NCBI RefSeq assembly: GCF_044324785.1
Contig: NZ_CP172127.1
DNA: 64,000 bases
Reading direction: 5' to 3' (one strand)
Origin: Escherichia coli
GTDB lineage: Bacteria > Pseudomonadota > Gammaproteobacteria > Enterobacterales > Enterobacteriaceae
Shown: positions 51,033-51,262 of the stretch, in pieces
Layout: every line of letters starts with the position of its first letter
Numbering within the stretch: the stretch's first letter is position 1
The notes under the pieces: generated by a model
The model's input: the letters and a program-made list of their open reading frames with translations, nothing else
Told to the model about the DNA's origin: nothing
The model's database searches: none
Translations under genes and position numbers: made by a program

Positions 51033-51262
51033 AAAGAAAAAAGCCAGCAGATAATCACTGCTGGCGTGGCGATTAACACCAATACTCAGTCACACATGAT
51101 GTCCGCAAATCAGTAGTCAGAATGACTCCCCTCCCACTGCATCAGTTCTTCAAGCATAGTTAATCGTTGTGGGACGCTTAACCAACGCAACCAGCACAAC
51201 TTCGCTGTCGCGGTAAAATAGTGCTGATAAAACTGACGCATGGGGCACCTCCTTGCTTCATC
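51033..51262 (-). ncRNA. sgrS: Dual-function small RNA SgrS (glucose-phosphate stress)
   Basis: Minus strand starts GATGAAGCAAGGAGGTGCCCC ATG..., contains the sgrT ORF and the conserved seed GAGUAUUGGUGU, and ends in a GC hairpin (ccagcagtgattatctgctgg) plus U-run. Confidence 0.8.
51110..51241 (-). CDS. sgrT: SgrT small protein encoded within SgrS
   Basis: 43 aa MRQFYQHYFTATAKLCWLRWLSVPQRLTMLEELMQWEGSHSDY. The track shows a longer 99-aa ORF that I trimmed. Confidence 0.8.
   Translation of the reverse strand: MRQFYQHYFTATAKLCWLRWLSVPQRLTMLEELMQWEGSHSDY

Follow-up and report, generated by a model that had tools for sequence, protein, structure and literature searches.

The sgrS locus

The stretch of DNA considered here, called the window in the following, comprises 64,000 nucleotides (64 kb) from Escherichia coli. 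It contains the gene of the dual-function small RNA SgrS, with the sgrT reading frame inside it, next to the divergently oriented gene of its activator SgrR. The features of the locus are the following.

51036..51262, minus strand: sgrS, dual-function small RNA, 227 nt according to the Rfam match, with +1 at 51262
51110..51241, minus strand: sgrT coding sequence, 43 aa plus stop, ATG intact (translation MRQFYQHYFTATAKLCWLRWLSVPQRLTMLEELMQWEGSHSDY; Pfam PF15894)
51248..51253, minus strand: sgrT Shine-Dalgarno sequence AGGAGG, SgrS nt 10-15, 6 nt 5' of the AUG and unmasked by a hairpin
51076..51101, minus strand: base-pairing block, SgrS nt 162-187, the same in both E. coli alleles and containing nt 168-181 and the 12-nt seed
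51067..51081, minus strand: small stem-loop of the Hfq-binding module, UGGUG-UUAAU-CGCCA, nt 182-196 (minimum-free-energy folds)
51043..51065, minus strand: Rho-independent terminator hairpin GCCAGCAG-UGAUUAU-CUGCUGGC, nt 198-220 (fold and terminator scan)
51031..51042, minus strand: U-rich tail UUUUUUCUUUUU, nt 221-232 (direct reading of the sequence)
51263..51329, minus strand: sgrR-sgrS intergenic region, 67 nt, with a -10-like CAATAAT and the blocks CAGCAATTTTAT and TCCCTATATTAAG
51330..52988, plus strand: sgrR, divergent activator of sgrS, 552 aa (NCBIfam NF010149, Pfam SgrR_N and SBP_bac_5)

A scan of the whole window gives one single match to the Rfam SgrS family (RF00534), running on the minus strand from 51262 to 51036. 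The match covers model positions 1-232 of 232 with a score of 227.6 bits (E = 6.2e-64), which far exceeds the gathering score of 37. For comparison, the same model gives 228.8 bits for E. coli B, which is of the K-12 type, 227.3 for CFT073, 213.2 for E. albertii and 190 for S. arizonae. The fold of the whole RNA has an energy of -81.8 kcal/mol (z = -3.7).

A preliminary description of this DNA had placed an SgrS/SgrT dual-function RNA at 51033-51262, without naming a strand, and had called for a covariance-model scan and an alignment of the 3' end to reference SgrS sequences. The identification is borne out, and the element lies on the minus strand. The scan recovers a full-length SgrS whose score is on a par with that of E. 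coli B, and the alignment finds the terminator stem to be conserved. The proposed span was also reasonable, as 51033 falls within the U-rich tail. Of the individual elements that had been named, the 43-aa sgrT frame is present and uninterrupted from 51241 to 51110, with a match to Pfam SgrT, and the seed, said to be conserved, is indeed unmutated and unique in the window. The element had furthermore been called well described, which is correct, since its allele class was published in 2009 (PMC2760817).

The features used as SgrS criteria by Horler & Vanderpool 2009 can be recognised at the locus, namely a divergent sgrR homolog with a conserved intergenic regulatory sequence, a small ORF with an SgrT-like product, a 3' region complementary to the ptsG ribosome-binding region (here that of strain 118UI ptsG), and a terminator.

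Two sgrS alleles in E. coli

The sgrS gene of the window is 100% identical to that of the UPEC strain 118UI, and the entire window is collinear with the 118UI genome at 98.5% identity. Compared to CFT073, the RNA differs at only 3 of 227 nt (nt 105, 117 and 227), while the number of differences from the K-12 type is 30 of 227 nt. The latter differences are distributed over the RNA as follows.

nt 1-130: 3 differences
nt 131-161 (SgrT C-terminus and upstream seed flank): 14 differences
nt 162-187 (base-pairing block): 0 differences
nt 188-227 (small hairpin 3' arm, terminator loop, closing pair and tail): 13 differences

Among 5,426 complete E. coli genomes, sgrS falls into two sharply distinct classes, with 2,158 genomes having at least 95% identity to the window and 3,241 having 80-90% identity (K-12 type). 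The SgrS homologs of CFT073 and O157:H7 have already been published and are 88% identical to K-12 SgrS (Horler & Vanderpool 2009, PMC2760817). The locus is an intact and canonical SgrS/SgrT of this published CFT073 type, and is as such already known and ordinary.

Base-pairing block and ptsG

The seed GAGUAUUGGUGU is found exactly at 51087..51076 on the minus strand, and this is the single occurrence of the 12-mer GAGTATTGGTGT in the 64-kb window, while none of 100 shuffled sequences contains it. In K-12, nt 168-181 are sufficient for the repression of ptsG, with G176 and G178 being most important (PMC7870926). This segment, including the two guanines, is unchanged in the window. In the base-pairing block as a whole, 0 of 26 positions differ from the K-12 type, compared to 27 of the 71 flanking positions (nt 131-161 and 188-227), which clearly marks the seed as being under constraint. 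Assuming a uniform divergence equal to that of the flanks, a binomial estimate gives a chance of ca 4e-6 for 26 consecutive unchanged positions. The 14 differences in nt 131-161 and the 13 in nt 188-227 could affect secondary target sites that make use of the seed flanks.

The ptsG gene is located outside the window, and the duplex was therefore calculated with the ptsG of 118UI, which has an identical SgrS and whose ptsG 5' region is identical to that of MG1655 over 371 nt. The seed is predicted to pair across the ptsG ribosome-binding region (...GCACCCAUACUCAGGAG...) with an energy of -36.7 kcal/mol, as compared to -21.4 ± 3.8 kcal/mol for shuffled seeds, none of which (0 of 500) reaches this value.

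The 3' module

It is important to point out that a gapless alignment shifts the small hairpin by one column between the two alleles, and it was for this reason judged by per-sequence folding rather than by counting pairs. The folds of all 21 distinct 3' variants, coming from 10 genera, have a double hairpin in common, consisting of the small hairpin with the seed GGUG in its stem, one unpaired base, and the terminator. The 3' arm of the small hairpin differs by allele: K-12 uses CACC and a loop of 6 nt, the window CGCCA and a loop of 5 nt. In K-12, this small stem-loop (nt 183-196) matters for Hfq-assisted annealing (PMC7870926).

The 3' hairpin, which had earlier been left unchecked, is now found at 51065..51043 and matches the conserved terminator stem of reference SgrS. 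According to the terminator scan, it has an 8-bp stem, a 7-nt loop and the tail TTTTTTCTTT. Its fold has an energy of -15.5 kcal/mol (z = -4.2), while the K-12 terminator has -13.2 kcal/mol. The helix is paired in 168 of 168 cells over the 21 variants, with 6 pairs being invariant, one compensatory change from G-C to A-U (in Enterobacter chuandaensis) and one change from G-C to G-U (in the K-12 type). While the loops vary freely across the variants, the stem is thus nearly invariant. The covariation signal comes from the single compensatory pair, and the observed value is reached by 25 of 500 shuffles; with a stem that hardly varies, the covariation support is thin and neither adds nor subtracts much.

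Both hairpins of the Hfq module are accordingly predicted in the window, and they are followed by an uninterrupted run of six U's, then a C and five more U's. Among the genera sampled, the tail most often has the form U6-C-(G/U)-UUU, and the U8 of K-12 is the exception.

A different situation is encountered at 12 SgrS loci of Klebsiella, Raoultella and some Enterobacter, in which the 22-nt core is identical but a terminator is missing from the 80 nt next to this core. This agrees with the K. pneumoniae SgrS, published as an RNA of ca 400 nt (PMC2760817).

sgrT and the 5' end

The SgrT frame scores 50 bits against the Pfam family PF15894 (cut-off 27), while a search of NCBIfam with the same protein gives no match. 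The SgrT protein of 118UI, where sgrS is identical, and of CFT073 is WP_001248768.1, annotated in 118UI as 'glucose uptake inhibitor SgrT'. Compared to the K-12-type SgrT, 36 of the 43 residues are identical.

The 5' end of the RNA reads GGAGGUGCCCC in the window, and the K-12-type hairpin GGGGGUGCCCC is essentially lost. The fold of the first 33 nt has an energy of only -6.7 kcal/mol (z = -0.5), as compared to -12.4 kcal/mol (z = -2.25) for the K-12-type hairpin. In K-12 this hairpin inhibits the translation of sgrT (PMC2760806), and of 15 E. coli strains just 3 have it (Horler & Vanderpool, PMC2760817). As G12 of K-12 is an A in the window, the ribosome-binding site of sgrT becomes a perfect AGGAGG, without a hairpin that masks it. 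With such a site, the window allele probably translates sgrT better, and yields more SgrT, than the K-12 allele.

Promoter region and sgrR

The SgrR protein scores 1126 bits against the NCBIfam equivalog NF010149, 'HTH-type transcriptional regulator SgrR' (cut-off 476), with positions 1-550 of 552 covered. The intergenic region between sgrR and sgrS, which is known to be highly conserved and required to activate sgrS (Horler & Vanderpool, PMC2760817), departs from the K-12 type at just 2 positions, both of them variable. The blocks CAGCAATTTTAT and TCCCTATATTAAG and the -10-like CAATAAT are conserved in Escherichia, Salmonella, Citrobacter and Superficieibacter, and the two blocks are presumed to be the SgrR operator.

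The -10-like element is located immediately 5' of +1, and a good -35 element is absent. A scan with the sigma-70 consensus finds no minus-strand promoter for sgrS, which is expected for an activator-dependent promoter that lacks a -35 element. On the plus strand, the scan gives two sigma-70-like matches, at 51026-51055 and 51073-51100, antisense to the 3' part of sgrS. Although 0.4 ± 0.7 such matches are expected in shuffled sequences, these two are probably due to chance in AT-rich sequence.

Downstream context

On the plus strand, the genes leuA-leuB-leuC-leuD end at 51002, so that sgrS is convergent with leuD and separated from it by 33 nt. When the whole window is searched by tblastn with SetA, no SetA-like sequence is found, and the arrangement that defines the K-12-type sgrS-setA unit, with setA immediately downstream on the same strand, is thus not seen here. 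The leuD-sgrS junction is contiguous in 2,159 of the 5,426 complete E. coli genomes, and setA is present in 3,241 of them, the same number as have the K-12-type sgrS allele. The equality of these counts (3,241 vs 3,241) points to a complete linkage between setA and the K-12-type allele, with setA being absent from the 2,158 genomes that have the window allele.

The preliminary description had considered the downstream context to be altered. The absence of setA is real, but the context is altered only relative to K-12-type strains and is normal elsewhere, as the arrangement without setA is the standard one in about 40% of the complete E. coli genomes.

The difference between the two arrangements is confined to one block:

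50997..51136, unstranded: allele-specific block with the last codons of leuD, the 33-nt spacer and SgrS nt ~131-227; K-12-type strains have a ~1.36-kb setA-containing block instead

The identity to the K-12 type is ca 97% from leuB to a point in leuD 6 nt short of its stop codon, drops to 73% over 51036-51135, and regains ca 97% from sgrS nt ~130 through sgrR. The block starts inside leuD (50997-51002 in the window, 2740-2745 in the K-12-type locus), and LeuD ends in ...FMR* here and in ...FMN* in the K-12 type.

Alternative readings of the locus

The missing setA, together with the 27 differences in nt 131-227 that set the 3' third of sgrS strongly apart from that of K-12, could be taken to mean that the locus is what remains after a deletion that removed setA, decaying now that selection is gone. 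However, none of the differences lies in the 26-nt pairing block, and the ORF and promoter as well as the two 3' hairpins are preserved. The 3' sequence is moreover common to E. albertii, E. whittamii and Escherichia sp. E1V33, which makes it an old and maintained form, and the Rfam score equals that of the reference. This pattern of conservation contradicts decay; pseudogenisation was rejected, and we assign a negligible probability to a remnant of this kind. Another option is that the RNA is intact but acts by base-pairing alone, with no SgrT being made, as has been proposed for O157:H7, which has nearly the same allele. Its SgrS is 99% identical to that of CFT073 and a point mutation abolishes the sgrT start codon (PMC2760817, PMC4021124), which means that SgrT is dispensable in close relatives. 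In the window, however, the ATG is intact (51241..51239), AGGAGG is present 6 nt upstream of it, the frame of 43 codons is open with its Pfam match, and the K-12 hairpin that inhibits translation is absent, all of which makes this scenario very improbable.

It is also conceivable that the riboregulator is functional but weakened, in that the U6-C tail and the re-registered small hairpin lower termination or Hfq binding compared to K-12. In that strain, a U tail of at least 7 is optimal and substitutions of U224 impair both termination and the action of Hfq; for U224A/G, read-through was observed, the abundance of SgrS was 40-50% lower and annealing was slower (PMC7870926). The tail of the window has six U's before the C, and its small hairpin also pairs U182, which is part of the U-rich Hfq contact. 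On the other hand, it is the U6-C-(G/U)-UUU tail with a G-C closing pair that is commonest in Escherichia, Citrobacter and the other sampled genera, with the U8 and G-U pair of K-12 being the outlier. The window terminator is also more stable than that of K-12 by the energies given above, and the allele is conserved in 2,158 genomes. Considering how widespread this form of the tail is, and that the stem is stronger, impairment by the U6-C tail is unlikely, and a weakening by tail and hairpin together is given a low probability as well, although a higher one than the two readings above.

Proposed function

The sequence elements are present, intact and conserved, and the complementarity to ptsG is there. 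With the Rfam score, sgrT, sgrR, the promoter region, the pairing block and the 3' hairpins all speaking for an intact gene, and with 2,158 genomes retaining the allele at an identity of at least 95%, we consider it almost certain that this is a functional sgrS of the CFT073 type, encoding an SgrR- and Hfq-dependent dual-function RNA of the glucose-phosphate stress response. The function of sgrS, that is, induction by stress, repression of ptsG and rescue of growth, has been established only for K-12 and some heterologous homologs (PMC2760817, PMC2760806, PMC7870926), and the expression, Hfq binding, regulation and SgrT level of the window allele would follow by homology to K-12 and Salmonella.

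By this analogy, the accumulation of sugar phosphates would be sensed as stress by SgrR (51330-52988), which would then activate the divergent sgrS promoter. The formed SgrS of ca 227 nt, acting together with Hfq, would pair through nt 168-187 across the Shine-Dalgarno sequence of ptsG, and with other targets such as manXYZ, leading to a block of translation and to decay. Hfq would be recruited by the 3' module, that is, the small hairpin, the terminator hairpin and the U tail. The 5' half of SgrS would be translated into the 43-aa SgrT, which would inhibit the PtsG transporter.

In K-12, SgrR also activates setA, which is located just downstream of sgrS (review PMC4021124). With no setA at this position, the SetA efflux arm would be missing from the response of the window strain, and the sgrS terminator faces the convergent leuD. 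From work of Sun and Vanderpool in 2011, setA is reportedly co-transcribed with sgrS by means of read-through of the sgrS terminator.

Origin of the setA polymorphism

The outgroups are GTDB species representatives recovered by a scan, whose pattern was not matched by E. fergusonii. In Salmonella, Citrobacter, Klebsiella, Raoultella, Enterobacter, Siccibacter, Pluralibacter and Superficieibacter, sgrS has setA as its immediate downstream neighbour. This place is taken by leuD, without setA, in E. albertii, E. whittamii, Escherichia sp. E1V33 and the E. coli species representative, where the 3' sequence is almost base for base that of the window. The window arrangement is found in 4 of the 5 sampled non-K-12 Escherichia lineages. 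The K-12-type allele is present in Escherichia sp. MOD1-EC7003, where a SetA 99% identical to that of K-12 over 120 residues could be recovered before the end of the locus. This allele and SetA in MOD1-EC7003, set against E. albertii, E. whittamii and E1V33 without setA, suggest that the block moves between lineages by recombination.

The sequences that flank the seed give further information. Those of the window type (UGGGAGG..., ...UUGCGGAC and UUAAUCGCC) resemble the consensus of Citrobacter and Salmonella. The K-12-type upstream flank (UGGGAUGACCGC... and UUGCCUGC) is like that of no sampled outgroup, and the K-12-type downstream flank (AAAAUCACCC) agrees with those of Salmonella, Superficieibacter and some Citrobacter. 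On the protein level, the K-12-type SetA is 87-89% identical to the SetA of Citrobacter and Salmonella, the corresponding values being 88-92% for LeuD and 84-88% for SgrR. No closer donor of the setA block was found among the sampled genomes.

The simplest scenario, although tentative, is that the window represents the ancestral form in Escherichia, in which leuD and sgrS became neighbours by an early loss of setA, and that the K-12 locus is a mosaic carrying a recombined block of ca 1.36 kb. This block would contain the last codons of leuD, setA and the 3' ca 100 nt of sgrS, that is, the SgrT C-terminus, the seed flanks and the Hfq module. The recombination would have taken place in the lineage leading to K-12-like strains, with a donor that had retained the enterobacterial sgrS-setA unit, and the 26-nt seed, which does not vary, would have persisted like an island within a block where 27 of the 71 other sgrS positions differ. 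With no closer donor, a divergence of SetA comparable to those of LeuD and SgrR on its flanks, and a sample without E. fergusonii and phylogroups, we put the odds of this scenario as roughly even, if anything slightly on the lower side.

A search of the accessible literature found no published account of this polymorphism in the presence of setA. CFT073 belongs to phylogroup B2, O157:H7 to E, K-12 to A and W to B1.

Comparison with known SgrS systems

The closest published counterpart is the SgrS/SgrT of CFT073, which is of the same allele class, has the same SgrT protein and a nearly equal Rfam score, and is also without setA. The two loci differ on both sides of the gene. In CFT073, an IS200C element follows directly after the U6 of the sgrS terminator, whereas the window has an uninterrupted spacer of 33 nt to leuD; and CFT073 is without the espY2 insert between sgrR and thiB that is present in the window. 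The IS200C element (3936-4600 of the extracted locus), whose 5' end is called STnc490 by Rfam, replaces the C-UUUUU continuation of the tail, and its insertion could affect the formation of the sgrS 3' end in CFT073. The SgrS of O157:H7 is ca 99% identical to the RNA of the window and likewise lacks setA, but its sgrT start codon is mutated (PMC2760817, PMC4021124), while the ATG is intact in the window.

The K-12 locus has the same gene, the divergent sgrR, the same promoter region apart from the two differences, the same nt 162-187 and the same core of the terminator stem. It differs by having the GGGGGUGCCCC hairpin that masks the sgrT ribosome-binding site, the G-U closing pair, the U8 tail and setA downstream, none of which is found in the window. 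The SgrS of Salmonella enterica is like that of the window in its identical 22-nt core, terminator stem, unmasked sgrT ribosome-binding site and divergent sgrR. In the two subspecies sampled, however, it has an extra 12-nt hairpin between the seed and the terminator, and setA is kept downstream, neither of which applies to the window. The SgrT of S. Typhimurium has 40 aa (PMC2760817).

Nothing that is known about SgrS is changed by these results, as this copy of a well-studied regulator is both standard and intact. It is nevertheless important to note that nearly all mechanistic work on SgrS, concerning the Hfq module, the U tail, the translation of sgrT and the co-regulation of setA, has been done with the atypical K-12 allele, and that the form of the window is present in about 40% of the complete E. 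coli genomes, uropathogenic and O157 lineages among them. The two alleles constitute a natural experiment, in which 27 substitutions flank an untouched block of 26 nt and the 3' hairpins are kept, and which shows what parts of the RNA are constrained.

Other features in the window

Beyond sgrR, the spacer to thiB (52989-54026) contains an additional reading frame:

53217-53786, minus strand: ORF of 189 aa between sgrR and the TPP riboswitch, annotated as espY2 (type III secretion effector EspY2) in E. coli TUM1886

The spacer is 100% identical to that of E. coli TUM1886, and the 189-aa protein has no match in Pfam or NCBIfam. The espY2 insert is present in ca 1,034 of the 5,426 genomes and absent from K-12-type strains and CFT073. 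In 118UI, the counterpart of the ORF is a split 'pentapeptide repeat' pseudogene. The only structural difference between the window and 118UI is located here, at 53106-53236, where 118UI has ca 530 extra bases beside the espY2/pentapeptide pseudogene.

Rfam also reports 'PssrA, plasmid-encoded Shigella sRNA A' at 24538-24627 on the minus strand, with 105.5 bits. The matched sequence is the chromosomal 3' end of ftsA and the 5' leader of ftsZ. It ends in AUGUUUGAA, which we take to be the first codons of FtsZ (MFE), and the start of ftsZ is at ca 24546 by collinearity with 118UI. The family name is misleading in this context.

The further Rfam matches, listed below, are all at the positions expected for E. 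coli.

6956-7069: tp2, in the pdhR-aceE intergenic region
18343-18418: naRNA4, repeat between mutT and yacG
18822-18891: STnc40, the secA-mutT terminator
46128-46277: leu leader
54027-54126: TPP riboswitch upstream of thiB
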